This document shows positions 4,033 to 64,000 of a DNA stretch of 64,000 bases, piece by piece. The stretch spans positions 205,181 to 269,180 of the forward strand of contig JBMNIH010000010.1 of NCBI GenBank assembly GCA_050950825.1, written 5' to 3'. A program made the translations under genes and the position numbers. Below the pieces are notes generated by a model. The model ran no database searches. It had not been told where the DNA came from and saw only the letters and a list, made by a program, of their open reading frames with translations. Every line of letters begins with the position of its first letter. Within the stretch, counting starts at the first letter, position 1. This DNA comes from Clostridia bacterium. GTDB taxonomy: Bacteria > Bacillota > Clostridia > JAAYHZ01.

Positions 4033-4061
4033 ATTATATACCTTCAAAAGCAATATGACAA
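4033..4061 (-). promoter_or_regulatory. sigma-A type promoter of the glp operon
   Basis: TTGTCA-17 bp-TATAAT on minus strand. Confidence 0.6.
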
Positions 4062-4207: not shown

Positions 4208-5059
4208 ATGAAGAAGATTGACTTTCACGTACATACCATGACTACGCGGATGGCTCATTGGAGAAGGGCGACTCCCGAAGAGCTGTTCGACATCTACGAA
4301 AAACTCGGTGTGGAAAAAGGGGTCATACTTCCTTCCGTTCAGCAGAACGAGGAAGCCATTGACATCGTAGAAAAATATCCGGACCGGTTTTATTGGTTTT
4401 GCAACATCGATCCTCGAATGGGAAGAAATCGACCGGACACCGACTTGTCCTACTTTATTTCCTACTACAAGTCCAAAGGGGCCAAAGGAGTAGGGGAAGT
4501 GACCTGCAACCTGTATTTCGACGATCCTTTTGTGGACAACCTGTTTTACCACTGCGAAAAAAATAAAATGCCTTTGTTGTTCCACATCGGACCTCAAATA
4601 GGGAATTGCTACGGTTTGGTGGATGATTTGGGCCTTCCGAGGTTGGAAAAGATGCTGGCCAAATATCCGGATTTGATTGTCATCGGTCATTCCCAGCCTT
4701 TCTGGGCGGAAATCAGCGCCGATGTCACAAACGAGAACCGCAACTCCTATCCGAAGGGAAAGGTCAAACCCGGGCGACTTTTAGAGCTTTTCCGAAAATA
4801 TCCGAACCTTTATGCGGATTTGTCTCCCGAAGCCGGAAGCGGCTTCAACGCCATTGCAAGAGATCCGGAGTTCGGTTATCAATTCTTAGAGGAATTTTCC
4901 GACCGACTGTTATACGGATCGGATATCTGCTCGCCTCATGACCGATTGGCTCTTGCCCAATGGTTGGACGATGCCGTTGCCAATAAAAAGATATCCCAAG
5001 AGGCTTATGAAAAAATCTGCAGGACAAATGCGCTCCGCATTCTGGAAGGGGGTCGTTGA
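4208..5059 (+). CDS. amidohydrolase_2 family protein (copy 1 of tandem duplicate)
   Basis: IDFHVH, LFHIG, IGHS, YGSD metal-ligand motifs; GAGGTG RBS. Confidence 0.85.
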   Translation: MKKIDFHVHTMTTRMAHWRRATPEELFDIYEKLGVEKGVILPSVQQNEEAIDIVEKYPDRFYWFCNIDPRMGRNRPDTDLSYFISYYKSKGAKGVGEVTCNLYFDDPFVDNLFYHCEKNKMPLLFHIGPQIGNCYGLVDDLGLPRLEKMLAKYPDLIVIGHSQPFWAEISADVTNENRNSYPKGKVKPGRLLELFRKYPNLYADLSPEAGSGFNAIARDPEFGYQFLEEFSDRLLYGSDICSPHDRLALAQWLDDAVANKKISQEAYEKICRTNALRILEGGR

Positions 5060-5060
5060 C

Positions 5061-5942
5061 ATGTTGAAGAAAATTGATATGCACGTTCATACCATTATGA
5101 GAAGAGGGATCTTGCGAATGGGAACGAACACGACCTTCGCAACGCCGGAAGAGCTGTCCCTTATGTATGAAAGATTAGGAATCGAAAAAGGCGTCATTCT
5201 CCCCGAGGTCAATTTTGAATGCGCAAGCCACATGCAGTCCAACGAGGATGCCATTCGCATCGTGGAAAAATACCCGGACATGTTTTATTGGTTCTGTAAT
5301 ATCGATCCGCGGATGGAGAGAAACGACATCCGTATGGACCTTTCGAGGGTCATCGAGAATTACAAAGCTCTAGGAGCAAAAGGGGTAGGAGAAGTATGCG
5401 CCAACCTGTATTTCGACGATCCTTTCATGGAAAACCTCTTTTACCATTGTGAAAAAACGGAGATGCCCGTTTTGTTCCATATAGGCCCCCAAGTCGGAGG
5501 CTGCTACGGTATTGTAGACGATTTGGGCTTACCTCGATTGGAAAAAATGCTGAAGAAATTCCCCGGACTGCAATTTATCGGCCATTCCCAGCCCTTCTGG
5601 GCGGAAATCGGTGCCGATGCGACGGAAGCCAACCGAAACTCCTATCCTACGGGGAAAGTGGTCCCGGGACGATTGATTGAGCTTTTCGAGCTTTATCCTA
5701 ATCTGTACGGGGATATGTCCGCAGGAAGTGGCTTCAATGCCGTAGCCCGCGATCCGGAGTTCGGATATGCCTTCATTGAAAAATACCAAGATCGCTTGTA
5801 CTTCGGTACGGATATTTGTGCACCGGAAAACGACATGCAATTGTCCTTCTGGCTGGATGAAGCGGTTCAAAACAAGAAAATTTCCCAAACGGCCTATGAA
5901 AAGGTTTGCAGGGGCAATGCCTTGAAGCTTTTAGAACGATAA
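5061..5942 (+). CDS. amidohydrolase_2 family protein (copy 2 of tandem duplicate)
   Basis: IDMHVH, LFHIG, IGHS, FGTD; start reset to ATG 5061 right after the upstream stop. Confidence 0.85.
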   Translation: MLKKIDMHVHTIMRRGILRMGTNTTFATPEELSLMYERLGIEKGVILPEVNFECASHMQSNEDAIRIVEKYPDMFYWFCNIDPRMERNDIRMDLSRVIENYKALGAKGVGEVCANLYFDDPFMENLFYHCEKTEMPVLFHIGPQVGGCYGIVDDLGLPRLEKMLKKFPGLQFIGHSQPFWAEIGADATEANRNSYPTGKVVPGRLIELFELYPNLYGDMSAGSGFNAVARDPEFGYAFIEKYQDRLYFGTDICAPENDMQLSFWLDEAVQNKKISQTAYEKVCRGNALKLLER

Positions 5943-5956
5943 AGGAGGATAGAGCC

Positions 5957-6922
5957 TTGAAATTCGGTATATTAGGTGCGGCACACGGACATATTGCCTC
6001 GTTTGCGGCGTCCATGATAAAAAAGGGGCATACCTTCGTCGGTATATACGACCCCGTGAAAAAAAGAACCGAATCCTATGTAACTCGTTTTTCGGTTCCC
6101 GTTTTCGACAGCCCGGAGGATTTATTAAAGACCGGGGCGGAGGTTATCGGAACCTCGGCGGTAAACAACACAAAAATCGATGTTTATGAATTATGCGAAT
6201 CCTATGGGGCTCATGTCATTGCGGACAAACCGGTTGTTACCGATTACGAGCAATACGAGCGCTTGAAAAAAATCATCGAAAGAGGAAGGATCCAAATCGG
6301 ACTGCTCTTGACGCTACGATTTTCCCCCCCTTATGTCCGTTTGAAAAGCCTTATTGATGAAGGCGCTTTAGGCGATCTTTTATCCTTTGAGTTTCATAAC
6401 CCTCACAACTTGAATCCTTCCGCTCGTGAGGACTGGCATTTTTCCAATACGGAAAACGGCGGGCTTATCATCGATTTGATCATACACTGCGCCGATTTGT
6501 TGAACTGGTACGTGGGCGATGTAAAGGATCCGGTGTATTCCGCAACGAAAAGAAAGACGGTATTGCCGGAAAAGGAAACCTTCTTCGATTACGCGGACGT
6601 GTATATGCAAACACAAGAGGGGATTACCGCTTTCTTTAAAACCGGTTGGCTCATGCCGGAGTGCGCTTCCGCCTCCGGGTACCGTGTGGTGGTGTCCGGG
6701 TCCAAGGGCACGGCGGTTATCGATAACGGTACGTTGAAGGTGTGCTGCAACGGCCGTCCCTTTGAGGAGGTTTCTTGTCCTTCCGTTGCCGAAGATCCTA
6801 CTGCGGATTTCCTTTTGGGTATCGAAGGAAAGGAACGGCTGATTACCCACGAAGCCATTTTAAAAGCAACGAAAATGACGCTGGATATGGACAAAGCGGC
6901 TCGGATTATAAAGAATTGCTAA
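5957..6922 (+). CDS. Gfo/Idh/MocA family oxidoreductase
   Basis: FGILGAAHGH N-terminus, DKP variant of EKP motif, DLIIHCAD; TTG start after AAGGAGG. Confidence 0.8.
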   Translation: MKFGILGAAHGHIASFAASMIKKGHTFVGIYDPVKKRTESYVTRFSVPVFDSPEDLLKTGAEVIGTSAVNNTKIDVYELCESYGAHVIADKPVVTDYEQYERLKKIIERGRIQIGLLLTLRFSPPYVRLKSLIDEGALGDLLSFEFHNPHNLNPSAREDWHFSNTENGGLIIDLIIHCADLLNWYVGDVKDPVYSATKRKTVLPEKETFFDYADVYMQTQEGITAFFKTGWLMPECASASGYRVVVSGSKGTAVIDNGTLKVCCNGRPFEEVSCPSVAEDPTADFLLGIEGKERLITHEAILKATKMTLDMDKAARIIKNC

Positions 6923-6944
6923 AAGATAAAATATGAAAAACGAT

Positions 6945-6975
6945 TAAAAAAGGGGCATCCGTTCGGATGCCCCTT
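6945..6975 (-). terminator. intrinsic terminator between convergent oxidoreductases
   Basis: AAGGGGCATCC-GTTC-GGATGCCCCTT hairpin with U-tract on minus strand. Confidence 0.75.
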
Positions 6976-6992
6976 ATCCTATGGAATAGGCT

Positions 6993-8066
6993 TTACTTGC
7001 AATCGTTTTTGTCCATGCCTCTTCGGTCCCAAGGTCTGTTTAATCCCAATCCTCTTAAATCGGCTACGATGCCCTTTTCCTCCGCATCGTACAAACGCCA
7101 GATAACCCGAAGTCCTTGGATGCTTTCCGGCCCGTCGGTGTTAGGACGTTTTCCGGTTCTTACGCATTCGAAGAAGTGTCGATTTTCTTCGTTGGTGTTT
7201 TTACCGGTGCTATTGTCTTCAAACACCAATTCCGTTTGGTTCTTGCCGTATTGTTCTCCTCGAAGGTTATTATGAACATATATTTTTCGTGCAACCAAGT
7301 CGGCCTCGATCATGCCTTCTCTGCAGTGGGCATGAATGCTGTACCTTAATTTGGAGCCTTTGGCTCCCCATGTTCCGAAATGATACCCCATGGCACCGTT
7401 TGCAAAAGTCATCGTGACGTTGCTGGTGCCTTCCTTTTCCATCCATTCCGTTCCGTAATTGCTGCCCATGTGGACGCCGCTGACGGGATCGCCTAAGAAC
7501 CAAAGCAGAAGGTCGATGTAGTGGCAGCCGTGGCTAAAAAGCTGTCCTCCTCCTAATGTGTCTTTACGGTGCATCCAGCTGCCGTCTTCTCTTCTCGTAT
7601 ATTGCTCGGTCCATATGGAAATTTGGAAGCAGTCGCCCAGCTCTTTTTTGTCCAGCATTTCCTTCAGCTTCAGCACCACCGGATTGTACCGCTGGACGTA
7701 GGCGGTCATTAAGACCAAATTTCTTCTCTGGGCGGTATGTATCAGGTCCAAGCATTCGTCTTCGGTATTGGCCAGCGGTTTTTCCATGAGAACATGCTTG
7801 CCGCTGTTTAAAAAATACATACCGCATTCGTAATGAAGATAATGAGGCAGCGCAATCAAGACCGCGTCCACTTTGTCTACAATATCTCTGTAATCGGTTA
7901 CATAGGTATCGCAATTCAAAGCGTCGGCCATTCTTTTTGCCCGTGCGATATCGATATCCACCGTGGCGGTTACCTGAACGTCTTCCGCAAATTGATCTTT
8001 CATATTCACTTGGTGAGCGGTTGCCATTCCGCCGCATCCCACAATTCCCAAACGTATGATACTCAT
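6993..8066 (-). CDS. Gfo/Idh/MocA family oxidoreductase
   Basis: GIVGCGGMA, HVLMEKPLA, GGGQLFSHGCHYID. Confidence 0.9.
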   Translation of the reverse strand: MSIIRLGIVGCGGMATAHQVNMKDQFAEDVQVTATVDIDIARAKRMADALNCDTYVTDYRDIVDKVDAVLIALPHYLHYECGMYFLNSGKHVLMEKPLANTEDECLDLIHTAQRRNLVLMTAYVQRYNPVVLKLKEMLDKKELGDCFQISIWTEQYTRREDGSWMHRKDTLGGGQLFSHGCHYIDLLLWFLGDPVSGVHMGSNYGTEWMEKEGTSNVTMTFANGAMGYHFGTWGAKGSKLRYSIHAHCREGMIEADLVARKIYVHNNLRGEQYGKNQTELVFEDNSTGKNTNEENRHFFECVRTGKRPNTDGPESIQGLRVIWRLYDAEEKGIVADLRGLGLNRPWDRRGMDKNDCK

Positions 8067-8213
8067 TGCAAACCTCCGGAGGTTATTGTTGCTTCCATTA
8101 TATACAAGTTATCGGCTCGTGTCGAACACAAAAATGCAAAACCGGCATAATTCCGGTTAGGATATGATATAATGTTTAAGCGGTAATACCTATGGATAGG
8201 GGGATATTTTCAT

Positions 8214-8795
8214 ATGCAGGACCAAGACCAAAGCAGAATCGACTTGACATCGGATGTGAAAAAAGCCAACAAAGCTTTATTCCCCATAATGCTGCTTTTG
8301 ATTGCCTTTATCTATTTTTTATACAACAACATCAACAACTCAAACCTTTATAACGATTTAAGATCCGCCGTAGGTTCTTACGATAATACATTTTTGTTTT
8401 TGCTGATATATTTGTTATGCCTTGTGTTCCTCATTATTTTCCATGCTTATCTTCACGCTTTTTTCCTAATTATTTTCGGACACTTGAAAAAAGAAAATAT
8501 TAAAGTGGTGATAGAGAATAAAAAGCTGATGCCTTTCGTAAGCCACGATGTTCCGGTTCAAGTAGCCGCTTATCGCAGGGCCTTGTTTTTGCCGTATCTT
8601 TTGTTGGGCTTGGCTCCTTTGGCTTACGGTATCATGGAGCGCTTGCCCTTGATCGTGTTTGCCGGCATGCTGATTTGCATATGCTATATGGGCGACATTC
8701 CTCTTTTGTTTAAATTGGCTAAGATCGATAAAGAATACATGGCCATATCCCATCCGGGAAAATACGGATGTTTTCTGTACAAGAAGAAAAAATAA
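8214..8795 (+). CDS. DUF3267-like membrane protein (metalloprotease-like; HExxH degenerate)
   Basis: several TM segments, HAYLH at the HExxH position, LPYLLLG and GD motifs, C-terminal HP..GC. Confidence 0.55.
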   Translation: MQDQDQSRIDLTSDVKKANKALFPIMLLLIAFIYFLYNNINNSNLYNDLRSAVGSYDNTFLFLLIYLLCLVFLIIFHAYLHAFFLIIFGHLKKENIKVVIENKKLMPFVSHDVPVQVAAYRRALFLPYLLLGLAPLAYGIMERLPLIVFAGMLICICYMGDIPLLFKLAKIDKEYMAISHPGKYGCFLYKKKK

Positions 8796-8875
8796 CTCGT
8801 TATTTACTACCGTTTACAATATTTTTGTGCAGTGTGATATAATAAGGCATACTGTTGATGATAGGAGGAATACAG

Positions 8876-9694
8876 ATGCAGTCATTTGCCGATAAACTAA
8901 AGATTTTTAAAGAAAATAAAGTCGTGAACTGGCACGAGCATGTTTGGGCGGATGCAAAGGGCAATCTCAATGTTGCCGATGCGGACAGGCTGGTAGAAGG
9001 TGCCAAAAAAGCAGGCTTCGATGTTCTGGTATGTTCTCTTCCCGTTACTCGAGGCAATCCGGCTCCGGAAATGTGCAAAAGGTATAACGACCTTGTTTAT
9101 GAAGCCATGAATCGATATCCCGGTATCATTCAAGGTATGTGCTATGTCAATCCCGGATACGCCAAGGAGGCTGTCAAGGAAATCGACCGTTGTATCAACG
9201 AATTGGGTATGATCGGCGTTAAGCTTTACAATCAATATTACCTTTCCGATCCTGCGGTACATAGCGTGATTGAAAAATGTATCGAATTGGATATCCCGAT
9301 TTTGGAGCATGCCGGTAAAATGCACCCCCGTTCGGAAGACCAACCGTTTATATCCGACGGAACCCACTTTGCCATGGCGGCGGAAAAGTTCCCCGAAGCC
9401 CTGTTCATATACGCCCATATCGGCGGAGGCGGGGACTATCATTGGTCCTTGAAAGCCATAGCCGATTATCCGAACATTTTCTTGGATATTAGCGGAAGTA
9501 TTTATGACGAGGACATAATCGAAGAAACCGTTCGTAAAATCGGTGTGGAACGGGTTATGTTCGGTACCGACGGTTCTTTCAGTTCCTCGATGGGGAAATT
9601 GTTAGGCTGCAAATTAAGCGAAGCCGAAAAGATCGCCATACTAAACAACAAGACCATGGAAAGGTACTTGGAGAGGGGGATGAAGAGATGTTAA
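8876..9694 (+). CDS. amidohydrolase_2 family protein, metal ligands intact
   Basis: HEH, LEHAG, YAHIGGG, FGTD; ATG 8876 after AGGAGG. Confidence 0.85.
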   Translation: MQSFADKLKIFKENKVVNWHEHVWADAKGNLNVADADRLVEGAKKAGFDVLVCSLPVTRGNPAPEMCKRYNDLVYEAMNRYPGIIQGMCYVNPGYAKEAVKEIDRCINELGMIGVKLYNQYYLSDPAVHSVIEKCIELDIPILEHAGKMHPRSEDQPFISDGTHFAMAAEKFPEALFIYAHIGGGGDYHWSLKAIADYPNIFLDISGSIYDEDIIEETVRKIGVERVMFGTDGSFSSSMGKLLGCKLSEAEKIAILNNKTMERYLERGMKRC

Positions 9695-12883: not shown

Positions 12884-13392
12884 TAGCTGTTCTCGGTCTC
12901 TTTGATGGGCTTTGAAAATAGAACGTTGTTAATGTATTCTAAAAACAGCTCCACGTCGGAGATTACGAAGCCTTTTACGGTAGAGTCGGTCATAAAAAGC
13001 TTCAAACCTGCAATGTTGCGAAACAAGGTTCCGTATGTGGCGTGTTTGATGTTTGTAAAAAGAATATCTTCTCGATGCAGCTCTTTTTTAATAAAAAACA
13101 AAAAGATGAGTCGGTCCTTCGTCAAGTAAAGCAGACCGTCCCTTATATACCGGTCGGAATAGTAGTTGGCAATATCTTTATGAATAATGTCTTGGTCAAT
13201 GGTTTGGTCTAAGTTCCTGTATTTTTTAAAGCTGATATCGGAAACCAGGCTTGTAATCAACGTAAACAGAGCAGCTGCCAAAATGCCGACGGCGAGTGCC
13301 CGACTTGGAGGTATGAAAAATACGGCTATTGCAAAAACAACAAATCCGAAAAAAATACCTGCGGTTACAGCTGTTCTTCTAAATTTGTCCAT
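12883..13392 (-). CDS. hypothetical membrane protein (two N-terminal TMs, PH/GRAM-like C-terminus)
   Basis: hydrophobic N-terminus, GLLYLTKDRLIF motif; coupled to ylmH. Confidence 0.55.
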   Translation of the reverse strand: MDKFRRTAVTAGIFFGFVVFAIAVFFIPPSRALAVGILAAALFTLITSLVSDISFKKYRNLDQTIDQDIIHKDIANYYSDRYIRDGLLYLTKDRLIFLFFIKKELHREDILFTNIKHATYGTLFRNIAGLKLFMTDSTVKGFVISDVELFLEYINNVLFSKPIKETENS

Positions 13393-13591
13393 AAAAAACT
13401 CCCTTGCTGAAATTGTGGCACACTTATTTTAACACATCTTAAGAATTCGTCAAAACCATGAACGGTTATAAAAGATAATAAAAATATTTCTTGATTTTCA
13501 CCCGGAATATTGTATAATCAGAAAATGTTTTTTGTGATAATTTTTGACGGCTGTTCATGATACGGCTGTTTTCATATACGGAGGGTTCTAT

Positions 13592-15409
13592 TTGAAAAAC
13601 GAAAAAATTAGAAACGTTGCCATCATAGCCCATGTCGACCATGGGAAAACCACGTTGGTTGACTGCATGCTGAAGCAAAGCGGTTTGTTTCGAAAAAACC
13701 AAGCGGTAACCGAAAGAATGCTGGACTCCAACGATATCGAAAGAGAAAGAGGCATTACGATTTTAGCCAAAAATACCGCCATTGAATACAAAGGCGTTAA
13801 AATCAATATTGTGGATACCCCGGGCCATGCGGACTTCGGCGGCGAGGTGGAACGAATTTTGAAGATGGTGGACGGCGTACTGCTTTTGGTAGACGCCTTT
13901 GAAGGCCCTATGCCCCAAACTCGATTTGTGCTGCGAAAAGCATTGGGTATGGGTTTAAAAACCATCGTGGTGATTAACAAAATCGATCGGCCGGATGCTC
14001 GATGCAGCCAAGTGGCCGATGAAATATTGGATTTGTTCATTGATTTGGATGCACCTTCGGATCTTTTGGAGTATCCTTTGGTTTATGCATCGTCCCGAGA
14101 CGGGTATGCGGTTTTGTCCTTAGAGGATCCGAAAGAAAACATTCTTCCTTTGCTTGATGTTATCTTAAAAGAAATACCGGCTCCGGAAGGAAATTCGGAG
14201 GAGCCCTTGCAGATGCTCATTTCCAGCATCGACTATGACGTTTACACCGGAAGAATCGGCATCGGGAAAATACAAAGAGGAAAAGCGCTCATTAACGGGA
14301 ACTATACCTTATGCAACTTATCCGGCAAAAGGGAAGAAATGAAAATCAGCGCCATGTACAGTTTCAAAGGGTTAAATCGAATTCCTTGCGAAGAAGCCTA
14401 CGCCGGAGACATCATTGCCATATCCGGTGTGGAAGGGATCGGCATCGGAGATACCATATGCGATCCGGATGTACCGGAGCCCTTGGAATTTGTGAAAATC
14501 GACGAGCCTTCCATTTCCATGATGTTCACGGTGAACGACAGTCCTTTTGCAGGCTTAGAAGGCGAATACGTCACGTCAAGGCATTTAAGAAGAAGGCTGT
14601 TCCGAGAACAGGAAAAAGACGTATCTCTTCGGGTTGCCGAAACCGATTCGGCGGATACGTTTCAAGTATTCGGAAGAGGAGAGCTTCATTTGTCGGTTTT
14701 AATCGAGACCATGCGAAGAGAAGGATACGAGTTTCAAGTGTCCAAGCCCTTTGCCGTTATTAAAGAAACACCGGAAGGTAAAATGGAGCCTTTTGAAATG
14801 GTATTTATTGAAGTACCGGATTCTTTTGTGGGAACGGTTATCGAAAAATTGGGATCCCGAAAGGGAGAGCTGGTTACCATGGAGGGAGGAGGCTCCGAAG
14901 GCTTTACCAGGCTTCAATTTATCATACCGGCTCGAGGATTGTTAGGGTATCGACAGGAATTTTTGACCGATACGCGGGGGTTAGGCGTTATGTATTCTTC
15001 TTTTCATGAATACGCTCCCTACAAAGGCGAGATTCCCACAAGAACCCGAGGTTCTTTGGTGGCCTGTGAAACCGGAACCGCCGTAACCTTCGGCTTGTTC
15101 AACGCCCAACAGAGGGGCCAGCTGATTATCGGACCCGGTACGGAGGTTTACGAAGGAATGGTGGTAGGCATCAACTCGCGAAGCGACGACATTGCGGTAA
15201 ACGTTTGCAAAAAGAAGCATTTGACTTCCATTCGAAACGTGCAATCGGAGGATCCCTTGCGTTTGGTTACTCCCGTTGATATGACATTGGAGCAAGCCAT
15301 CGAATTTATAAAAGAGGACGAGCTGATCGAGGTGACACCGAAGAATTTCAGGATACGTAAAAAAATACTGGATAAAGTGATGCGGGAACGAATGGCAAGA
15401 AGAGGATAA
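13592..15409 (+). CDS. typA: translational GTPase TypA/BipA
   Basis: [26 protein letters not shown]-terminal EVTP..RIRK; TTG start after GGAGG. Confidence 0.95.
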
Positions 15410-55067: not shown

Positions 55068-55688
55068 ATGGATAAAATTTATGAAGAATTATACGATGAG
55101 GACCTTGTACAATTGGGACGTGACGGAGATCCGATGGCTTTTGAACAGCTGTTTTCAAGGTACAAAACCATGGTGAATTCGAAAGCCAGGGCATACTTTT
55201 TGGCGGGAGCGGACAAAGACGACCTTCTGCAGGAAGGTATGATCGGATTGTTTAAAGCCATGCGAGATTTTGACGGAACAAAGGAATGCAAATTCGGAAC
55301 GTTTGCGGAAATCTGCGTCACCCGCCAGATTATTACGGCGGTGAGCGCGGCTGCTCGACGGAAGCACACCCCTTTGAATACCTATGTTTCATTGAACAAG
55401 CCCGTATTCGAAGACGAATCCCAAACTACATACATCGATTTGATTCCAAGCGGCGATTGCGATCCCGAAGTACTTGTTTTGGAAAACGAAAGAAGAGAGT
55501 ACATGAAAAATTTCATTCTCAATTACTTAAGCGATATGGAAAAAAAGGTTCTGCACTATTATCTTAACGGATTATCTTATTCGGAGATCGCGAATAAAGC
55601 TTGTATTTCCGTCAAGTCCACGGACAATGCCCTGCAGCGGATAAAAAGAAAATTAGGTCGTGTTTTAGCCGGAATGAAAAATTCATAA
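55068..55688 (+). CDS. sigH: RNA polymerase sigma factor SigH
   Basis: YFLAGADKDDLLQEGMIGL, CVTRQIITA, KHTPLN.YVSL, KS.DNALQRIKRKL. Confidence 0.93.
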   Translation: MDKIYEELYDEDLVQLGRDGDPMAFEQLFSRYKTMVNSKARAYFLAGADKDDLLQEGMIGLFKAMRDFDGTKECKFGTFAEICVTRQIITAVSAAARRKHTPLNTYVSLNKPVFEDESQTTYIDLIPSGDCDPEVLVLENERREYMKNFILNYLSDMEKKVLHYYLNGLSYSEIANKACISVKSTDNALQRIKRKLGRVLAGMKNS

Positions 55689-55695
55689 AAAGGAC

Positions 55696-55724
55696 TAGAC
55701 TTTCTAAAAAACCTGTGCTATAAT
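55696..55724 (+). promoter_or_regulatory. promoter of the tRNA pair
   Basis: TAGACT-17 bp-TATAAT with extended TG. Confidence 0.6.
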
Positions 55725-55757
55725 CTCACATGTTCTGTTGAAAATGTCTGCGGTTTT

Positions 55758-55831
55758 GCGGATGTAATTCAATGGTAGAATGCCAGCTTCCCAAGCTGAC
55801 TACGCGGGTTCGATTCCCGTCATCCGCTCCA
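55758..55831 (+). tRNA. tRNA-Gly(CCC)
   Basis: GCGGATG/CATCCGC acceptor, loop TT-CCC-AA, TTCGATT, CCA. Confidence 0.95.
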
Positions 55832-55844
55832 GTTTGCGAGCAAT

Positions 55845-55920
55845 GCCGCTATAGCTCAGAAGGCAGAGCACTTCCATGGTAAGGAAGGGGTCATCGGTTC
55901 GACTCCGATTAGCGGCTCCA
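55845..55920 (+). tRNA. tRNA-Thr(GGT)
   Basis: GCCGCTA/TAGCGGC acceptor, loop AT-GGT-AA, TTCGACT, CCA. Confidence 0.95.
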
Positions 55921-55926
55921 AAATAC

Positions 55927-55966
55927 AAATCCTTCAAGCACTTGAAGAGTGTTTGAAGGATTTTTT
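55927..55966 (+). terminator. terminator after tRNA-Thr
   Basis: AAATCCTTCAAGCACT...AGTGTTTGAAGGATTT plus T-tract. Confidence 0.8.
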
Positions 55967-55983
55967 GTTGTAAGGAAATCCGT

Positions 55984-56946
55984 TTATTTGCCGGCCATCA
56001 TATCGTAAAAAACGTTTTCGGATATGATTTCAATACCTGCACCCGACAGCTTTAATTGCTCGGCTTTTTTGAGCTTTGAGCTTTTTCCGCCTTTTATATT
56101 TTTGTTGTAATCCAAGTTCCCTAAAACGAGGTAATCCGTTTTCGCCGTTACCGTATCGGCGCAAATTCCGCCTACATTCACCACGATTTGAGCGGCTTCT
56201 CTTCGTAACATTTTCTCTAAGGTACCGGTAAATACAATGACTTTGCCGTAAAACGGGTGCGATTCGTCAAAATCCGTTTCGGTAGCGGTAACATCGCCGA
56301 CTTTAAAATAAGAGCCGTATTTTGATTGCTTTTTGGCTCGGTCGTTTATGTCGATTCCGGTTTCCGATGCATACTTTTTCATATGCTCGTAGCATCGAGC
56401 GGCGTTTAATGCATCGGAATAGGAGCGATGCTCTACCTGTTCGCATATTCCGAAATGCTGCAGCAAGGTATTCAGCTTATAATTCGGTAATCCTCTATAC
56501 AACAGGCGGCATAATCTCATGGTGTCAATAAAATCGTTTTTGAGAGGTATTCCCAGATGATACATGCAGTTATCATACAAAAAATTGATATCGAAATTTG
56601 CATTATGGGCGACAAGTACACGATCCTTTAAAAATTCGATAAAGCCGGGCAATACATCCTGTATTTTCGGTGCATTTTGCAGCATTTCGTTGGTAATTCC
56701 GGTTAAATCGGTTATGAATTTGCTTATTTCATACCCCGGATTGATTAGGGATTGGAACTCGGCAATTACGGAGCCGTCTTTGATATGTACGGCGGCCACT
56801 TCGATAATATCGTCATATCGAGGATCAAGACCCGTTGTTTCCAAGTCGACGGCAACGTATTCGTTGACAAAGTCCGCAAGGCTTTTGCCTTTTCGGTCCC
56901 GTTTGTTTTCCATATCTTCATGTTTTAAGTTTACTGTAAAACTCAT
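55984..56946 (-). CDS. DnaQ-like DEDDh 3'-5' exonuclease with C-terminal BRCT domain
   Basis: DLETTG, HNANFD, DTM, HRSYSDA; VFTGTL...GG...TDYLV BRCT. Confidence 0.88.
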   Translation of the reverse strand: MSFTVNLKHEDMENKRDRKGKSLADFVNEYVAVDLETTGLDPRYDDIIEVAAVHIKDGSVIAEFQSLINPGYEISKFITDLTGITNEMLQNAPKIQDVLPGFIEFLKDRVLVAHNANFDINFLYDNCMYHLGIPLKNDFIDTMRLCRLLYRGLPNYKLNTLLQHFGICEQVEHRSYSDALNAARCYEHMKKYASETGIDINDRAKKQSKYGSYFKVGDVTATETDFDESHPFYGKVIVFTGTLEKMLRREAAQIVVNVGGICADTVTAKTDYLVLGNLDYNKNIKGGKSSKLKKAEQLKLSGAGIEIISENVFYDMMAGK

Positions 56947-57096
56947 AATAACAGCCCCCCCATATTCCCATTATTCCATCCGTTTTGATCGGCGTCAAGA
57001 ATAGAAGATATGAAAAAAGAACCTCATGGTACGTCTCATGAGGCTAAATAATTATATATAACTAAAGGGAGGTTATTTTGCTACTCAAATAAACCG

Positions 57097-58368
57097 TTAA
57101 ACAAACACTTCGTAGATATATGCGTTTGTTCGGTTGTAGGGGTCGTTTTTCACGACATGGTACGGAGTTATGTTAATTTCGATATTTTTCGTTACGCGGT
57201 TTTCCTTTGCGTAAAAGTTGGAATAGGTAACCCACTCGGATTGGTCTTCCTCTCGTGTTGCCACAACGGATACGGAATCCTTTTTCAATAACAAGGATTC
57301 GGGGTCCACCTCACCGATGACCAAAGGATAGCGGGGCATGTTACCGAAGGGGTTGCTTTCCGAGATGTTGCCGATCCAATAAAGCTTTCCATTGGAATGC
57401 CACAACAGCTGGGAACAGGACGAAGGAGAATAGAAGTTTTCTTGGGTATCGTATAACCAAGGCTTTGCTTCGCTCCATGTATATCCTCCGTCGGAGGAAA
57501 CGGAATACCAACGGTAGCCCGGGATGGCGGTTGTCGGATTGTCATTTCTTCCTTGGTTGCTTCCTCTCATCACCATTAATATGCGTCCGTCCGGCATTTC
57601 CGCTATGGCAGGCTCGATTAAGCCTCTTCGTGAAAGATCCGGGGAAATTTTTATCGGTTCCGAAAGATCCCACTGCAGTTGCGAGTTTTCATCCCATTTT
57701 CCGTGGAGCAGAGCGCAGTAGGTAAAGGTGAATCCGGATCCGGGGTTGTAGTAGTTCCCGTTCTCGTCGGTATTGGATATTTGAACGCCTAATATGATCT
57801 TGTTGTTTTCTTTCGGATCCTTTTGATACTTCGTAAGGCAAGGAAGCTCGGTGTGATCCCCTAACATGATGCAGTTTTTCCCGGTATTCACGCCTCGCAA
57901 GGAATGCATGGCGTTGTATTCGTCACCTTTTTGAATCACTTGCTTTTCGTAAGCAATGGTTCTTCCGCCGTCAAAGGAAACTTGGTACCACAATGTCCAA
58001 TTCATCATGCCTTCCAAAGGATTGTCCGTCGGCAAAAGGGCCTTGGTGGAAAACATCACCAAACGTTCTCGTCCGTCCGGAACGACGGAGCCGGGACATA
58101 CAAGACTGACTCGATAGTAGTCTCTCACCGTGCCTTGAGGGATGGTTTTAACCGGTACCAAATCTCGTATTCTTTCGTAATGCTCACCGTCTTCGGTAAT
58201 GCTTAATATGGAGGTGTCGACGGTGTCCGAACGGCTTGCGGTACTTGATACCTTGATCATGGAAACGCCTTCACTTTTGTTGTAAAAAGTGATGATGGAA
58301 GGTGCTACGCCGGGTGCAGGCGCGGCTTCCGCTAAAATCTTATTGACTTTTCTCTTGCATGCGAACAT
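57097..58368 (-). CDS. sialidase/BNR-repeat beta-propeller protein (no signal peptide)
   Basis: Asp-boxes SFDGGRT and SSDGGYTW, EPAIAEM, PRYPL; start reset to ATG 58368 after GAGGT. Confidence 0.7.
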   Translation of the reverse strand: MFACKRKVNKILAEAAPAPGVAPSIITFYNKSEGVSMIKVSSTASRSDTVDTSILSITEDGEHYERIRDLVPVKTIPQGTVRDYYRVSLVCPGSVVPDGRERLVMFSTKALLPTDNPLEGMMNWTLWYQVSFDGGRTIAYEKQVIQKGDEYNAMHSLRGVNTGKNCIMLGDHTELPCLTKYQKDPKENNKIILGVQISNTDENGNYYNPGSGFTFTYCALLHGKWDENSQLQWDLSEPIKISPDLSRRGLIEPAIAEMPDGRILMVMRGSNQGRNDNPTTAIPGYRWYSVSSDGGYTWSEAKPWLYDTQENFYSPSSCSQLLWHSNGKLYWIGNISESNPFGNMPRYPLVIGEVDPESLLLKKDSVSVVATREEDQSEWVTYSNFYAKENRVTKNIEINITPYHVVKNDPYNRTNAYIYEVFV

Positions 58369-58378
58369 GAATTTTACC

Positions 58379-60064
58379 TCATTTCTCCCCGTTTTTTCTT
58401 TTATTATCATGGCTAAAGAACCTTTCCATTAACTGTTCATAAGCCATGCCGTATTTATACGCAATATCGTAAGCATAACTTTTTCCGTCGGTTACGGCGG
58501 GAATGATCTTGTAGGTGCTGACATGTTTGATCTTGCCGTTTTCTTCAATTTTTTTGATTTGGGAAACAAGACCGATAACGGTACTGCTTCCTTCCACCTC
58601 CGAATTGATGTTATCGATTTCATAAGCCAGTTCGTGAAGGTGGGTGGAAAACACCACTCGAAGTCCGATGGAGCGGAAGGCCTTCATCAAGTTTGCGCAA
58701 ATCACCAAGCTGTCGTAAGCGCTGGTGGAAGACAACGATTCGTTGAGAAGAACCATGCTGTAGCGGGTGACGGAATCCATCATGCCGGAAAGCTCTCTTA
58801 ATTCTTCTCCTAAGCGGCCTTCGTCCACCCTTCTTTCTTCTTCCTTCGGAAAGTGGGTAAACAGTTTATCCACGGGACTCATTTTCGCTTTGGTACCGGG
58901 GACGTATAAACCGGCTTGGAACAAAACCTGCGCCATACCAATGGCTCGCGTATAGGTGGTTTTGCCTCCTTGGTTGGGACCGGTGATGATAAAGATTCGG
59001 CCTTGATCGTTCATGGCAACGTCATTTTTCACAATGACATCTCCGGGACGGCTCAGCTTGCTGTTTTCCTTCCTCATGCGGACGGCTAAGGATATGTCGC
59101 AAGTATTTTCGATTTCGCAGATTCTTTCCTCCTTATCCGCAACCTCCGGTCGGGTCATGGGAATACCCATTTCTTGGGCTCGATCGACCAAATGGTACCC
59201 GGCCATGTAAAAGTCGATTTCCAAATCGTATTCCAGCAATTCTTCGATACCGGAAGTAAAGTATTCGTCCAATAGCTCCGCGACCTTTTCTAAGCCCATA
59301 CGAATGACTTCGCCGAGGTCCTTTAAAAAAGCCGCTTCGATTCCGCTTTTGGATACTTTGGCAAGGCTGTAGAACTGGGACTTTTTCAGTATTTCTTCCG
59401 CATTGTCTTTTGTTTGAAAAAAGTCCGATAAAAAGGATCTTTTTTTGAAAGGCTTCGGTTCGAAGGTTAAAATCATTGCTTCGGTGGGCTCTAAAAGCTT
59501 GTTCATGTTGATGCCGACGGTGATGCCTTTCATATTATCGATGGCTTTTTGATGTTCGGGGAGTTTTTCGACAATGAATTTATAACTTTCGCTGCGATAA
59601 ATGTCGTCGATGTATTTGATGAAATTCTGCAATCCTTCGCTTTTCACGTCGTTTTTACAATCTTCCAGGATTTCACGGATTTCCTTGATGCACTTGACAT
59701 AGGACTGCATTACACTGAATTTCCAAAGAATGTCCTTGTGGGTTTCGTCAAATCGAAAGGTTTTAACGCCGTATTCGTTTTTTAAGGCGATTAATTTCAT
59801 AAGAATGTTGGCGGCACACTGTCTTACGGATTTATTCTGCATGAAGTCTTCGAGAATTTCGGAACGGTAGGCGATGTTTTCACCGCTTGTTTGCATGACA
59901 GACAAAAGCTTCATGCAATTGAATGCATTTCTGTCGGTGTTACGGAACATATAGTCTATGTCATCAATACCTAAATCCTTTACGATATTTCCTTCCAACA
60001 CATAGACTTGTTCTCGGTGAATATCGTCTTTGTATAACAAAGATGGTCTTTTCGGTATATCCAT
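58379..60064 (-). CDS. stand-alone MutS-family ATPase (domain V, no mismatch-binding domain)
   Basis: ITGPNQGGKTT, GRLGEE, LLNESLSST, STHLHEL, SYA; start reset to ATG 60064 after AGGGAGG. Confidence 0.85.
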   Translation of the reverse strand: MDIPKRPSLLYKDDIHREQVYVLEGNIVKDLGIDDIDYMFRNTDRNAFNCMKLLSVMQTSGENIAYRSEILEDFMQNKSVRQCAANILMKLIALKNEYGVKTFRFDETHKDILWKFSVMQSYVKCIKEIREILEDCKNDVKSEGLQNFIKYIDDIYRSESYKFIVEKLPEHQKAIDNMKGITVGINMNKLLEPTEAMILTFEPKPFKKRSFLSDFFQTKDNAEEILKKSQFYSLAKVSKSGIEAAFLKDLGEVIRMGLEKVAELLDEYFTSGIEELLEYDLEIDFYMAGYHLVDRAQEMGIPMTRPEVADKEERICEIENTCDISLAVRMRKENSKLSRPGDVIVKNDVAMNDQGRIFIITGPNQGGKTTYTRAIGMAQVLFQAGLYVPGTKAKMSPVDKLFTHFPKEEERRVDEGRLGEELRELSGMMDSVTRYSMVLLNESLSSTSAYDSLVICANLMKAFRSIGLRVVFSTHLHELAYEIDNINSEVEGSSTVIGLVSQIKKIEENGKIKHVSTYKIIPAVTDGKSYAYDIAYKYGMAYEQLMERFFSHDNKRKNGEK

Positions 60065-60322
60065 TTTTTCCTCCCTAAATTTATACACCACACAACCAAT
60101 GGATTCCATAAAAGAACCGAATCCCACGGGGGTATACCTTAACACATCTTATACTAAATATATATCTACCGTATTTGAATATGCCGGCGTTGAATGACTT
60201 AGGAATATTATACCATGGTAAACCTCGGATGTCCGGTGTTTTTCACAAAAATTTTAGATATAATCAATCTTTTGGTAAATAAAAACGAATTCTGTAAACA
60301 TTGCCCGCAGCTCGTATATCGT

Positions 60323-60351
60323 TTGCACAAATGAAACACACTTGGTATAAT
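60323..60351 (+). promoter_or_regulatory. sigma-A promoter of ybaB-recR
   Basis: TTGCAC-17 bp-TATAAT with extended TG. Confidence 0.65.
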
Positions 60352-60386
60352 ACAAGTGCTTAAACCCTAATTAGGAGGAAGAATAC

Positions 60387-60728
60387 ATGGCCAGAGGCAG
60401 AATGAGTAATTTTGGCGGAAGCAATATGAATAACTTAATGAAGCAAGCGAAAAAGATGCAGCAGGATATGCAGCAAGCGCAAGAAGAGCTGGAAGCAAAA
60501 ACCTTTGAAGCCACGGTGGGCGGCGGTATGGTTACGGTGGTAGCCAACGGAAAAAGGGAAATATTAGAAGTGAATATTCAGCCGGACGCCATCGATCCGG
60601 ACGATGTGGAAATGCTGCAAGACATGATCGTAGCGGCCGTCAATGAAGTATTGAGAAAAATTGACGATGCGGCGCAAAGCATTATGGGTAAGTTCACGGG
60701 CGGTTTCGGTTTGCCCGGAATGTTTTAA
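60387..60728 (+). CDS. ybaB: YbaB/EbfC nucleoid-associated protein
   Basis: [30 protein letters not shown]; upstream of recR. Confidence 0.93.
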
Positions 60729-60741
60729 GCATCGAGGCTTT

Positions 60742-61344
60742 ATGATTCGATACACTTCATCCATTGAAAAACTCATAGAATCGTTTATGAAGCTGCCCGG
60801 AATCGGAAGAAAAACGGCAAAGCGTTTGGCCTTTCATATTTTGGAGATGCCGAAAGAGAAGGCCGAGGAAATCGCTCAATCCATTTTGGACGCAAGAAAA
60901 AACATCATTACTTGTTCGGTATGCGGGGACTTGACCGATACCGATCCTTGCCGTATTTGTTCCGATAAACGCAGGGATTCCGCTCTCATTTGCGTCGTAC
61001 AGGAACCGGGCGACATCATGGCGATGGAGCGCACCGGGCAGTACTTCGGATACTACCACGTTTTACACGGGGTGATTTCGCCTATGGACGGAATCGGTCC
61101 TAATGATATTAATCTTAAATCCTTGCTTACACGGGTTTCCGAAAACGATATTAAAGAAGTCATTTTGGCCGTGAATCCTACCGTGGAAGGCGAAGCGACA
61201 GCCATGTATATTTCCAAGCTATTGGCACCTTTTGGCGTTACGGTGTCCCGAATCGCCCATGGAATTCCCGTAGGAAGCGATATCGAATATACGGATGAAG
61301 TTACCTTGGCGAAGGCCATCGAGGGAAGAAGAGTTATTCGTTAA
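60742..61344 (+). CDS. recR: recombination mediator RecR
   Basis: LPGIGRKTA HhH, CSVC..C.IC zinc finger, YHVLHG, Toprim [18 protein letters not shown]. Confidence 0.96.
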
Positions 61345-61423
61345 AAGAAGAATATTTGTCTACATCAAATAAACTCCTTTCATTTTTCAAATGTATGAAA
61401 CGGGGTAAATAAAGTAGTATTAG

Positions 61424-61473
61424 AAAACATGGTTTATTAGGGAGAAGAAAAGCCCTGTAGGCCATGTTTTTTT
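61424..61473 (+). terminator. terminator inside the element end that can terminate ybaB-recR
   Basis: AAAACATGGTTTATTAGGG...CCCTGTAGGCCATGTTTT plus T-tract. Confidence 0.65.
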
Positions 61474-62008
61474 ATGTATTAGTTTTAAGGGATAAGGAAC
61501 AAGGAATAAGGCTAAAAGCCAGAAAAATCAATGGATTAGAAGATTGAATGGAAAAGAAAATGGAATGAAAAATGGGTAAAATCTCTCCTTAACCCTTCCC
61601 CCTTAACCCTCAATCCTAAAAGCACTTTATTTTCATTTTTTGCCCTAAAAATTGAGGAATGAAAGGACTTTAGGAAGTAAGGAATAAGGAAAAAGGAATT
61701 AAATGGGAAATTGGAAGAGAATAACAAGCCAGTATTTTCAAGGGTTTGAGGGGTGTTTGTGAAAGGAGTTTATTTGAAAAAGGAAAGAAGTTTGTTTGGG
61801 TTACATATAGTTAGGATTAAGGAAAAAGGGGTAAGGAAAATAGGAAATAATTTTAGGCTTAAAATAGGGCTTAATTAGTTGTTGTCAAAAATAAAATAAA
61901 GTAGTTGTAGTTAAAGGAATAAGGAATCAGGGAAAGTATTGATAATACAAGGTTTAGATTAGGTTTTAAGGATAAAGGTATATGGTATTAAAGGGAATTC
62001 GTGAAAGT

Positions 62009-62587
62009 ACTTTATTTACTTTTTCTATACAACATAGGCCTTTTTTTCTGTTTCAAAAAATAGCATAGTTAAAATTGTAAGAAACAAAAAAGTCCTTTTA
62101 TCGCAGAAAAGTAGTTGCAAAAAGAAAATAAAGTTCTTGTATTAGGATTTTATCCACATTTTATGAAACAGGGATGGGGATAAAGCATATAAAATATAGC
62201 ATAAATGTGGATAAAAGGAAAAAGGAACAAGGACATTATTTTATTTTTACAAGAACTTAGTGTATTTTTTCTGTTTCAGAAATTGTAATTAATGAATTCT
62301 GAAAATAAAAAAGTATTTTTAAGGACGATAAAGTTCTTTTATTTTTAAAATAAAGTTGTTATATTGAAAAGTTTAAGAAATAAGGGGAAACATTGAAAAT
62401 ACGAGGTTTGATATGGGTTCGGAGTATAATAAGGCTGGTAATCATAGGAGATTTATACAACGACTTTATTTGCATTTTATATAGAACATACGCTGTATTT
62501 TCTGTTTCAAAATATAAACATAAAAATTTTTGAAAAAGAAAAATAAAATTGCAACCGATAAAGTTCTATCAGAATAAAAAATAAAGT
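62009..62587. repeat. three degenerate ~125-bp quasi-palindromic units at ~225-230-bp period
   Basis: units 62009-62134, 62233-62356, 62463-62587, each AC(T/A)TTATT...TTTTCTGTTTCA...AAAGT...AATAAAGT. Confidence 0.75.
62148..62216. promoter_or_regulatory. inverted pair of consensus DnaA boxes
   Basis: TTATCCACA 62150-62158 and TGTGGATAA 62206-62214 within a 14-bp perfect IR; 1-mismatch box TGGGGATAA 62175-62183. Confidence 0.5.
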
Positions 62588-62741
62588 TGTATCATGAGAT
62601 GAATGCTTTTTTATATAAACTGTTAATAAATACTACAAAAGCATTTGCTGGCATTGAAATAACAATAGGAATTATGCTATATTGCAAATAAATAGGGAGG
62701 CTTATGAGTATGAATAGGTTTCATGTGAAAGGGTGAAAGTT

Positions 62742-62993
62742 ATGGAAAGAAAAAAAGTCATAACTTTTTCGGACAGGTTTTTTAGTAATTTAAGAGAATT
62801 TGGTTTGGATTTTAATAAGACAAAACAAAATATCCTTTCCCACATTGAGGAAAAGGAAAAAGACTTAAGTTTGGATAAAAGGATGTTATTTTATACGCCA
62901 TATATAAATGAAGGCAAAAAATATATGCTGGTTGGATATGCAACTAAAAAAGGAAAAATCTATTCTTATAGAAGCCACCAGCATATGGGATAG
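62742..62993 (+). CDS. small hypothetical protein (possibly frameshifted, continuing to 63051)
   Basis: ORF with GGGTGA RBS and upstream TTGAAA/TATATT promoter; no recognisable motif. Confidence 0.4.
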   Translation: MERKKVITFSDRFFSNLREFGLDFNKTKQNILSHIEEKEKDLSLDKRMLFYTPYINEGKKYMLVGYATKKGKIYSYRSHQHMG

Positions 62994-63247
62994 AGGGTTT
63001 AATCCTGAAGACATAATTGTTAAAGAAACAAATATTAGAATTATTAAATAGTAAAAGATAAAATCAAGAGTGGTTTTTAGGTATAAAACGATAAAACGTA
63101 AATATTTACTAAAAAACAAGTTCTAAATGTAAAAAACTATTTGGATTATAAGTTTAACAGTAGATTAGAAAATAAAATAAAGGTAAATAAAGTTGTTCCT
63201 TTTACAGGGGAAAAGGGCAAGGAAAAAGGAATAAAGAGGGCAATATA

Positions 63248-63299
63248 AAATCCTTTGTAATCTGCATCAAAAGCGGATTACAAAGGATTTGTTTGTTTT
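63248..63299. terminator. long terminator-like hairpin
   Basis: AAATCCTTTGTAATCTGC...GCGGATTACAAAGGATTT followed by T-rich tail. Confidence 0.7.
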
Positions 63300-63774
63300 A
63301 TTGGATAATATCCTTATTGCTTAAACCTATTCCCTTGAGACTATTCCGAAAGAATAACTTTTATTTATATTAGAACGAGTTATTTGTAAGAGAAAGAGTT
63401 TATTTGATGCTTATACAGAAGTTAAAAATGAGAGTGTAAGAGGAGTAAGGAGATGGTAAAAGATATGATTACAATATAATATTATAGATAAGATATCATT
63501 TATGTGGTTTTTTATGGAAAATGAAGGGATTTGGAAAATTATATCGAATTTTATATATAAATGTGTTTTTATCACTAACTTAATATAGGGGGGATTGAAA
63601 TGGATGAAAAATCTTTTGCCTGCCGAAATCCTGAAAAAAACGATAGAAAAACTAAACTCACAGCAAGATTGGACTGAAGAGTATAGTGGAACTTTCAAAG
63701 ATTTATTTGAACAGGGAAAAGTATGATAGCCAGGAGGAGATATCCAGGGCTATTGGGCAGGTGAGTAGAAAACC

Positions 63775-64000
63775 ATGATAAGAAGTATTAATATTGAAAA
63801 TCTAAGAGGAATTAGGTTTAATACGAACATTGATTTAGATAAAAAATCTCTAATTATTTTTGGGGAGAATGGAAAAGGAAAAAGTTCAATTGTTGATGGA
63901 ATTGAATATGCAATTACTGGGGATATTAAGCATATTTCTTCAACATGTAGAGAAGTATCATTAAAAAAACACGCCCCTCATATATACGCAGATTTTCAAG
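63775..64000 (+). CDS. SMC/Rad50/RecN-type ABC ATPase, N-terminus only (truncated by window)
   Basis: MIRSINIENLRGI...LIIFGENGKGKSSIVDGIEYAITG Walker A; AGGTGA RBS; not in the supplied ORF track. Confidence 0.8.
   Translation, partial: MIRSINIENLRGIRFNTNIDLDKKSLIIFGENGKGKSSIVDGIEYAITGDIKHISSTCREVSLKKHAPHIYADFQ

Follow-up and report, generated by a model that had tools for sequence, protein, structure and literature searches.

Evidence for a Tn7-family transposon attached at the 3' end of recR in Clostridia and other anaerobic Bacillota

What occupies the DNA downstream of recR in a genome whose sequence turns very AT-rich only 12 bp past the stop codon of that gene? The genome under study (G000) is that of a Clostridia bacterium (assembly GCA_050950825.1; 3.55 Mb, 97% complete), and the window, by which we mean the whole stretch of 64,000 nucleotides that was analysed, is positions 205181-269180 of its contig C10 (JBMNIH010000010.1; 269,180 bp). 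An initial annotation of the window had placed here, at position 61357, the end of a Tn7-like transposon that uses recR as its attachment site. The final base of the window is also the final base of C10, such that the sequence ends about 2.6 kb inside the element and window positions 61357-64000 represent its first 2.6 kb. We find that 61357 is very probably the recR-proximal terminus of a transposon of the Tn7 family, close to prototypic Tn7, for which the 3' end of recR serves as the attachment site.

The recR gene is intact (60742-61344, plus strand; Pfam RecR_HhH, RecR_ZnF, Toprim_4 and RecR_C; stop codon TAA at 61342-61344) and is followed by a 12-nt spacer, AAGAAGAATATT (61345-61356, plus strand), which closes with one copy of the predicted 5-bp target duplication, ATATT (61352-61356). 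The element then starts at 61357 with TGTCTACATCAAATAAACT (in a longer reading, TGTCTACATCAAATAAACTCCTTTCA). Its recR-proximal end type, which we call end A, spans 61357-61466 on the plus strand and was recognised with an E value of 1.3e-30 by nhmmer, using a profile model built from 25 distinct copies (models were made for two end types). End A comprises an 8-bp terminus, TGTCTACA (61357-61364), and two boxes of about 20 bp each of the AAATAAA(C/G)T type: box 1, TCAAATAAACTCCTTTCATT, at 61365-61384 and box 2, GTAAATAAAGTAGTATTAGA, at 61406-61425, with AATAAAGT at 61408-61415. Across the 64-kb window, the box motif AAATAAASTNNTTNC (counted with at most one mismatch) occurs 13 times against 2.2 expected, a count reached in none of 100 shuffles, and 12 of the 13 occurrences fall within 61367-63405, on both strands. 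This pattern of boxes and ends is far beyond chance. The GC content changes from 0.45-0.49 in recR to 0.23-0.33 downstream, and an intrinsic terminator inside the element (61422-61479, plus strand) faces transcription arriving from recR. The terminator hairpin, at approximately 61422-61472 and followed by a U7 tail, folds with -25 kcal/mol (z -5.84), and none of 200 shuffles was as stable. It falls inside the 110-nt opening stretch of end A over which the 25 distinct copies align, and belongs to the element. The AT-rich start, the boxes (including the one at 61408) and the terminator are all present where the initial annotation had located them.

Might these features instead be the native terminator and intergenic region of recR, with a resemblance to a Tn7 end that arose by chance? 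AT-rich DNA readily yields words like AATAAAGT, and the genome G001, from the same genus as G000, lacks the element end yet has, 37 nt past its own recR stop codon, a hairpin whose ACATGG...CCATGT stem is the same (contig C13; L026:2940-2840, minus strand). Against the end model this hairpin does not reach significance (E 1.7, with a match limited to model positions 57-86), and it may be either a very old relic in which the terminator was kept or a coincidence. What argues against a native origin, in addition to the excess of boxes, is the sharpness with which homology changes at 61357. Among 40 relatives compared by alignment, the matches to G001 and to G002 (same family) stop at query positions 952 and 960, at the recR stop, and homology to contig C21 of a further genome, G040, begins exactly at window 61357 (query 971) with 72% identity. 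The alignment to G023 runs through to 61481; the first 38 nt from the TGT are identical in G023 and G000, and the spacer and recR differ. Our main reference for a complete element is contig C29 of G043, the isolate genome of Herbinix hemicellulosilytica. The recR coding sequence is 60.1% identical to that of C29, and the spacer between stop codon and TGT agrees at 7 of 15 columns; identity is then 90.5% in 61357-61807, 96.1% in 61808-63149 (C29:6446-7785) and 96.6% in 63384-64000 (C29:7785-8398), so that it jumps from 60% to more than 90% exactly at 61357. A blastn alignment that began within recR had suggested that the 3' half of the gene was transferred together with the element, an idea that was rejected on finding recR to be about 60% identical throughout. 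A near-identical end is moreover found where the neighbouring RecR protein shares no more than 38-65% identity with its G000 counterpart, and an inverted partner end exists.

The same boundary appears in four metagenome runs (X1-X4; three from biogas fermenters and one from a landfill). Summed contig depth, which does not equal copy number, is 2.5-5.8 in the recR bins 61005-61246 and 175-9400 across the four bins of 61368-61851 (539-6120 in 61368-61488; 324-8294 in 61731-61851), a rise of about 100- to 1000-fold at 61357 that is followed by a drop of about 3- to 8-fold past 61852. Two contigs in X3 and three in X4 match from 61357 onwards and have unlike sequence before it. The module 61357-61851 is present in far more DNA than is the recR gene of G000. 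No sequencing run contained more than 0.61 of the sampled words. We consider it extremely improbable that the end is a native part of the recR flank. The initial annotation had also looked to the recR flanks of related genomes for empty sites, and homology to G001 and G002 does end at the recR stop; synteny downstream of recR is not conserved among G000, G001 and G002, such that no simple alignment across both flanks was obtained.

Is the association with recR general? The 20-mer pattern TGTNNACATCAAATAAACTC (18 fixed bases) was searched in 596 Gb of species-representative genomes, in which we estimate that about eight matches would arise by chance. It gave 70 matches at 67 loci, which on our reading of the loci comprise 42 copies of end A, 20 of the far-type end, B1, and eight unrelated loci (Polaromonas, Marinicella, three Methylococcales, Vibrio, and metagenome-assembled genomes (MAGs) of Flavobacteriaceae and Christensenellaceae). 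Together with the copy in G000 there are 43 copies of end A, and 33 of them adjoin recR (31 by a test for its C-terminal motif, and two, in L034 and L063, by tblastn; L numbers denote matches among species-representative genomes (genome_contigs) or metagenome loci, and G numbers genomes). These 33 lie in 33 different species-level assemblies, with titles that include Lachnospiraceae, Tissierellaceae, Caldicoprobacterales, Acetivibrionales, Thermoclostridium and Tepidanaerobacter, among others. The ten copies found elsewhere comprise six that are nested (preceded by ...CCTG(C/T)ATCTA), three that stand behind a mini-element, and one other.

The position of the end relative to recR is almost invariant. 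Counted from the first Arg codon of EGRR, the TGT lies at 30 nt in 25 of the 31 measurable cases, at 29 in four, at 31 in one and at 27 in one, which places the insertion 12-16 nt past the stop codon and leaves recR intact. In G000 and L089 recR is longer by one codon and the gap from stop to element is 12 nt in place of 15, yet the distance is still 30; it is therefore measured off from the coding sequence, the stop codon playing no part. When 24 distinct occupied sites were aligned on the TGT, conservation was confined to positions -75 to -16, where it has a codon-like pattern, and the last 15 nt before the TGT carried approximately zero information. On the basis of this conservation, the last 20 or so codons of recR (61282-61341, plus strand) form a candidate recognition region for TnsD. 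None of the 20 B1 ends abuts recR, showing that insertion is orientation-specific.

These properties also bear on whether 61357 could be the edge of an island integrated by a tyrosine or serine recombinase, through an att core overlapping recR at its 3' end. Islands beside conserved genes are usually of that type, the far side of the element in G000 is unassembled, and the open reading frames (ORFs) of the related 58-kb island described below were scanned in part. The 12-16 nt between stop codon and element are nonetheless not conserved and hold no common att core, and the ends are inverted and carry TGT termini and several boxes. The 5-bp duplications differ by genome (TTTGC, GGAGT), relatives carry tnsABCD, and no recombinase is encoded among the ORFs of 61357-64000. 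An integrase-built island is, in our judgement, highly improbable.

A separate consequence of the association with recR concerns assembly. Many short-read assemblies (L033, L040, L047, L057, L068, L069 and others) have a contig that breaks off some 100-130 nt inside end A, and the element is a systematic assembly breakpoint just past recR in MAGs from digesters. It explains the frequent assembly breaks after recR, many of the 67 loci ending about 100 nt in.

Which transposition genes accompany the end? The initial annotation had pointed to TniQ/TnsD elements adjacent to recR, and G043 provides one: contig C29 joins a recR-adjacent end A (at 5994, with recR at 5379-5978) to an intact tnsA (55232-56089), tnsB (56064-58232), tnsC (58204-59868) and tnsD (59865-61577), all on the same strand as recR. 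The encoded proteins contain the expected Pfam domains, namely PF08722 and PF08721 in TnsA, PF09299 in TnsB, AAA_22 and TniB in TnsC, and PF06527 and PF15978 in TnsD, and NCBIfam gave no informative name for them. Compared with solved structures, TnsB matches Tn7 TnsB (7pik) over residues 25-678 with an E value of 7.7e-110, and residues 2-286 of TnsD match Tn7 TnsD (8glu; E 1.3e-30). Past residue 286 TnsD has no match; the solved 8glu chain contains only 318 residues, such that the C-terminal half is not comparable.

Further copies extend this association. TnsD or TniQ domains lie inside the ends in L037, L060 and L091, and PF15978 was present in four of five carrier genomes tested. On contig C5 of G041 a 641-aa TnsD and a TnsC-like ATPase are found 6 kb from a B1 end, the sequence upstream having been replaced by an unrelated insertion sequence (IS). 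Relatives of G043 TnsA are encoded at 55 metagenome loci, and in seven of these tnsABCD, or the two ORFs that come after it, is followed by an end-A module within 1-3 kb; in L140, where the operon is more divergent (TnsA 52% identical), a B1 end comes next (E 2.9e-32). At the metagenome tns loci, the 10 kb upstream of tnsA contained neither end A nor recR. With 33 of 43 end copies adjoining recR at a fixed distance and with tnsABCD in relatives, the original proposal of a Tn7-like end that uses the recR 3' flank is borne out.

Multi-box TG...CA ends are common to the Mu-like, Tn552-like and Tn5053-like families, and the end in G000 might on that account belong to another DDE transposon (Mu-, Tn552- or Tn5053/TniABQ-like), the Tn7-type genes being those of mere neighbours. 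The 49 kb that separate tnsA from the recR-proximal end in G043, and the many rve-type IS and TniB-like ATPases of G000, would fit such a reading. It does not account for the joint occurrence of tnsABCD and end modules in 7 of the 55 independent metagenome loci as well as in L140 and L037, nor for the 58-kb tns unit that is bounded by end A, a second terminus type (B2) and a TTTGC duplication. Indeed, elements of the Tn5053/Tn402 type have no TnsA, whereas the relatives encode TnsA with both of its Pfam domains, their TnsB is closest to Tn7 TnsB, and tblastn with the G043 proteins found no Tns homologue among the IS copies of G000. We therefore regard a DDE transposon of another family as very unlikely, and return to a Tn7-family element as the explanation to be weighed.

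The limits of that element are marked by target duplications in two relatives. In G043, TTTGC precedes end A (5994) and recurs at 64348-64352, right after a B2 terminus (...GAAAGAAGTTTGTTTGAGGTGCATA), thereby bracketing a unit of 58,354 bp (C29:5994-64347). Directly past the second TTTGC lies an older, degenerate element with a TnsD fragment and a B1 end (C29:64353-68204). In L093 recR is separated from an older end A by a free module of about 455 bp that has its own end A and B2, with GGAGT on both sides. This evidence of duplication is real but thin.

B2 is the terminus that closes such mini-elements, one of which stands at the start of the element in G000. Here the module of 451 bp (61357-61807, plus strand; 90.5% identical to C29:5994-6445) consists of end A and an inverted B2 and holds both ends and no gene; the B2 boxes are at 61761-61775 and 61783-61797 on the minus strand, and the B2 terminus, ...GGTTACATA, is at 61799-61807. 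Behind it comes the pentamer TAGTT (61808-61812, plus strand). The junction of B2, TAGTT and AGGATT(A/G)AGG recurs in G000, L029, L060, L067, L073, L076, L091, L092 and other loci (at least eight besides G000), and TAGTT is therefore part of the larger element and not the target duplication of the G000 copy. The large element carries a mini-module in direct orientation at both edges, which suggests that two insertions of mini-elements captured the interior and that the outermost copies of end A and B2 now act as termini of the large element. More generally, repeated insertion at one site, together with 450-bp non-autonomous mini-elements, would have built a nested array.

Where, then, are the transposition genes and the partner end of the copy in G000? 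The initial annotation had anticipated tns or tniQ genes downstream and a far end flanked by ATATT, and neither was found: the contig ends 2.6 kb in, which would account for the lack of tns and tniQ genes in the assembly, and the sole far-type end is followed by ACAGA. A search of the whole genome with the terminal 26-mer (up to six substitutions) returned exactly one other copy, inverted, at C10:1590, with four differences, the two 26-mers agreeing at 22 positions. This end has three boxes that run inward at a spacing of exactly 20 bp, and the profile models likewise recognise one end A (C10:266537, which is window 61357) and one strong B1 (C10:1590, E 2.3e-30) in G000. Its ACAGA flank, in place of ATATT, means that it is not a simple partner of end A. 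An arrangement in which one element closes a circle through both ends of C10 was also considered; against it stand the different flanks (ATATT, ACAGA) and the position of the homologous GNAT gene in G001, which is not by recR.

Several observations weigh against the assignment to the Tn7 family. The assembly of G000 returned no hit to the four G043 proteins TnsA, TnsB, TnsC and TnsD at E <= 1e-3 (tblastn), and no match to Pfam PF06527, PF08722 or PF09299, the latter a weak negative since the control genomes also gave 0 of 14. No second copy of ATATT was found, the sole strong far end, at C10:1590, being followed by ACAGA as described. The B2 terminus in the window reads ...CATA instead of ...ACA. 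Just one contiguous sequence, C29 of G043, joins a recR-adjacent end to an intact tnsABCD, and its tnsA lies 49 kb from the recR-proximal end, unlike in Tn7. Five further carrier genomes yielded a TnsD fragment in one and nothing more, which indicates that most copies are relics. Finally, five mini-modules that do not end in TAGTT could be read on both sides, and only the one in L093 has matching pentamers; those in L063, L044, L075 and L089 have none, although L089 has four nucleotides alike at an offset. The copy in G000 is accordingly either a relic or the edge of an incompletely assembled element, and some sequence is evidently absent from the assembly: the last gene of the window, which is cut by the contig end, has no remainder on any of its contigs.

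How would the element reach this position? By analogy with Tn7 TnsD at glmS, its TnsD would bind the conserved last 20 or so codons of recR and recruit TnsC, and then the TnsA/TnsB transposase. Insertion would follow in a single orientation, within the non-conserved spacer and 30 nt past the first Arg codon of EGRR, with a 5-bp duplication made in the process. TnsB would be expected on the AAATAAA(C/G)T boxes of about 20 bp, of which the recR-proximal end has two, set apart, and the far ends have two or three in direct succession. The terminator, 65 nt inside the end, would halt read-through from recR and replace the earlier end of the recR transcript. Repeated use of the one site and mobilisation of mini-elements in trans may have led to the array, in an order of insertion that we can only suggest, and such elements may be active at present.

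A wider reading would be that these elements form a new lineage of Tn7 relatives, in which TnsD was retargeted from glmS to the conserved C-terminal codons of recR, which occupies at least 33 species, builds islands of defence genes through repeated insertion at the one site and uses mini-elements as its outer ends. The hosts would be anaerobic, largely thermophilic Bacillota, and the mini-elements would reach, in digester metagenomes, about 100-1000 times the summed contig depth of the G000 recR flank. We hold the balance between accepting and doubting this reading to be about even.

Tn7 of Escherichia coli, which inserts at attTn7 downstream of glmS by means of TnsABC and TnsD, offers the closest comparison. 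Related copies of the present element have the same tnsA-tnsB-tnsC-tnsD set, a TnsB that is alike over nearly its full length and a TnsD that is alike in its N-terminal 285 or so residues. The TGT terminus with several boxes of about 20 bp is shared, as are a single orientation, a constant distance past conserved codons of the target, a target gene left intact and a tns operon that reads away from it; 5-bp duplications are seen in two relatives. The target, however, is recR here and glmS in Tn7, and the hosts seen here are, by their record titles, anaerobic Bacillota. No tnsE was identified; tnsD is followed by two conserved ORFs without a family match. The cargo of G043 also lies mostly between the target-proximal end and tnsA, with the operon near the far end, and a copy of the 450-bp mini-element module stands at each edge of the element, both in direct orientation.

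Natural mini-elements of this kind can be set beside miniature inverted-repeat transposable elements and laboratory mini-Tn7. The 451-bp module has both ends and no gene, and the copy in L093 stands alone at recR. These modules differ in being natural, in being highly abundant in digester metagenomes and in apparently serving as the outer ends of an autonomous element.

Dedicated selectors that recognise a conserved region of a housekeeping gene, and thereby enable spread across species, are discussed in passages of PMC10293859, where the TnsF of Tn6022-type elements is described as targeting comM and the TnsD of type I-B CRISPR-associated transposons (CASTs) as homing to glmS. The recR element resembles both groups, as portrayed in those passages, in pairing a dedicated selector with a conserved housekeeping gene. 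It differs in that the selector has TniQ and TnsD domains and is not a tyrosine-recombinase-like TnsF, in that insertion is past the stop codon and not within the gene, and in that no CRISPR component was seen, no dedicated search for one having been made. The main-text passages of the survey papers PMC8649781 and PMC10293859 that we consulted do not name recR as a target, and in full-text searches of the open literature, which covered the articles themselves, recR did not come up as an attachment site of the Tn7 family. Provisionally, the recR site is undescribed in print.

If so, recR joins the conserved 'safe sites' used by Tn7-family elements, and the C-terminal region of TnsD and the 3' end of recR make a natural pair for studying how TnsD is retargeted. 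Genetic tools are scarce for the Clostridia concerned, which are thermophilic, cellulolytic or from digesters, and a TnsABCD system whose universal target is defined to 30 nt from a conserved codon could become a means of single-copy integration in them. The recR flank is also a place to seek defence cargo, given the OLD nuclease, type I restriction-modification, HerA-type and SMC-like ATPase genes in a relative.

That cargo lies in G043 at C29:8173-54881 (L102, L100, L098 and L097), a defence-like part of the 58-kb element that includes an 800-aa SMC-like ATPase, a ParM-type actin-like protein, a Toprim/primase-like protein, the methylase and specificity subunits of a type I restriction-modification system, a HerA-type ATPase and a Ser/Thr kinase with TPR repeats. 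An OLD-family nuclease is encoded directly upstream of tnsA, and in many metagenome loci the OLD gene and an ORF of 173 aa precede tnsA. The two ORFs directly after tnsD (C29:61743-62981, 412 aa, and 63046-63846, 266 aa; L097:11744-12979 and 13047-13844) have no match in Pfam or NCBIfam and recur at 99-100% identity in the metagenome locus L134. They are placed where Tn7 has tnsE and, as pure speculation by analogy, might act as a second target selector.

Within the window, recR is preceded by ybaB (60387-60728; PF02575). Beyond the TAGTT junction, the element in G000 continues with an AT-rich, ORF-poor interior (61813-63307, plus strand; GC 0.23-0.31) that has boxes in both orientations and GGA-rich tracts. 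Two tandem units that are 454 bp apart and 73-75% alike (61892-62062 and 62346-62516) each contain oppositely oriented boxes and may be decayed mini-elements; a 29-nt motif, AACATAGGCCTTTTTTTCTGTTTCAAAAA, repeats every 223-231 bp, at 62031, 62254 and 62485. An integron-like cassette array was considered for this 227- and 454-bp periodicity and set aside, no integrase being seen and the boxes fitting the transposon-end model. The GGA-rich tracts, such as TAAGGGATAAGGAACAAGGAAT, are at 61486-61507, 61676-61699, 61809-61842, 62214-62235 and 63211-63232. A similar tract stands just outside many element ends in L028, L039, L046, L060, L088 and L091, and outside nested ends the pattern is the end, 5 nt (TAGAT, CAGAA or TAGTT) and then (G)CAGGA(A/T)TAAGG; the tract may mark a place favoured for secondary insertion, or it may be a structural component of the ends. 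The possibility that the repeats are an RNA gene, or a GGA-rich RNA resembling a CsrA sponge, was dropped, as the sequence is conserved as a block within a mobile element; a comparison of 60000-64000 with Rfam gave no family at E <= 1, and promoter-like sites show no excess, with 9 found where 13.6 would be expected.

Three ORFs are present in 61357-64000: one of 86 aa (62733-62993) and one of 43 aa, both without a Pfam match, and an AAA ATPase. A hairpin at 63248-63290 is followed by a degenerate B1 (63308-63417, minus strand), in which three boxes succeed one another at intervals of about 20 bp and which ends at 63417 with ...CTTATACA; the end-B model matches it at 63308-63413 with an E value of 1.3e-13, and it is 75% identical to C10:1353-1588. 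We count it as internal since conserved element sequence runs on past 63417, and C29 of G043 has the same degenerate B1 at 7816 with the same sequence beyond. The cargo gene that follows encodes an SMC-like AAA ATPase (63775-64000, plus strand; Pfam AAA_23, AAA_15 and SMC_N), its first 75 codons being present before the contig end cuts it; the corresponding ORF in G043 is that of 800 aa. The last 300 nt of C10 have no 21-, 31- or 55-mer in common with any other contig end of G000.

The opposite end of the contig is in element DNA as well (C10:1-1590; L021), with an inward-facing end-like site at C10:1217. Here the element end supplies the final 11 codons and the stop of a GNAT acetyltransferase ORF (C10:1555-2103, minus strand); the homologous GNAT gene of G001 adjoins a methyltransferase gene and is not near recR. 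Elsewhere in G000, many identical copies of rve-type IS lie near contig ends (for example C1:786-6494, C6:1638-1943, C7:304374-304676, C8:175109-175414 and C9:252957-260648), IS21-like pairs of an rve protein and a TniB-like ATPase occur in three copies, and the IS copies probably cause most of the contig breaks in this genome.

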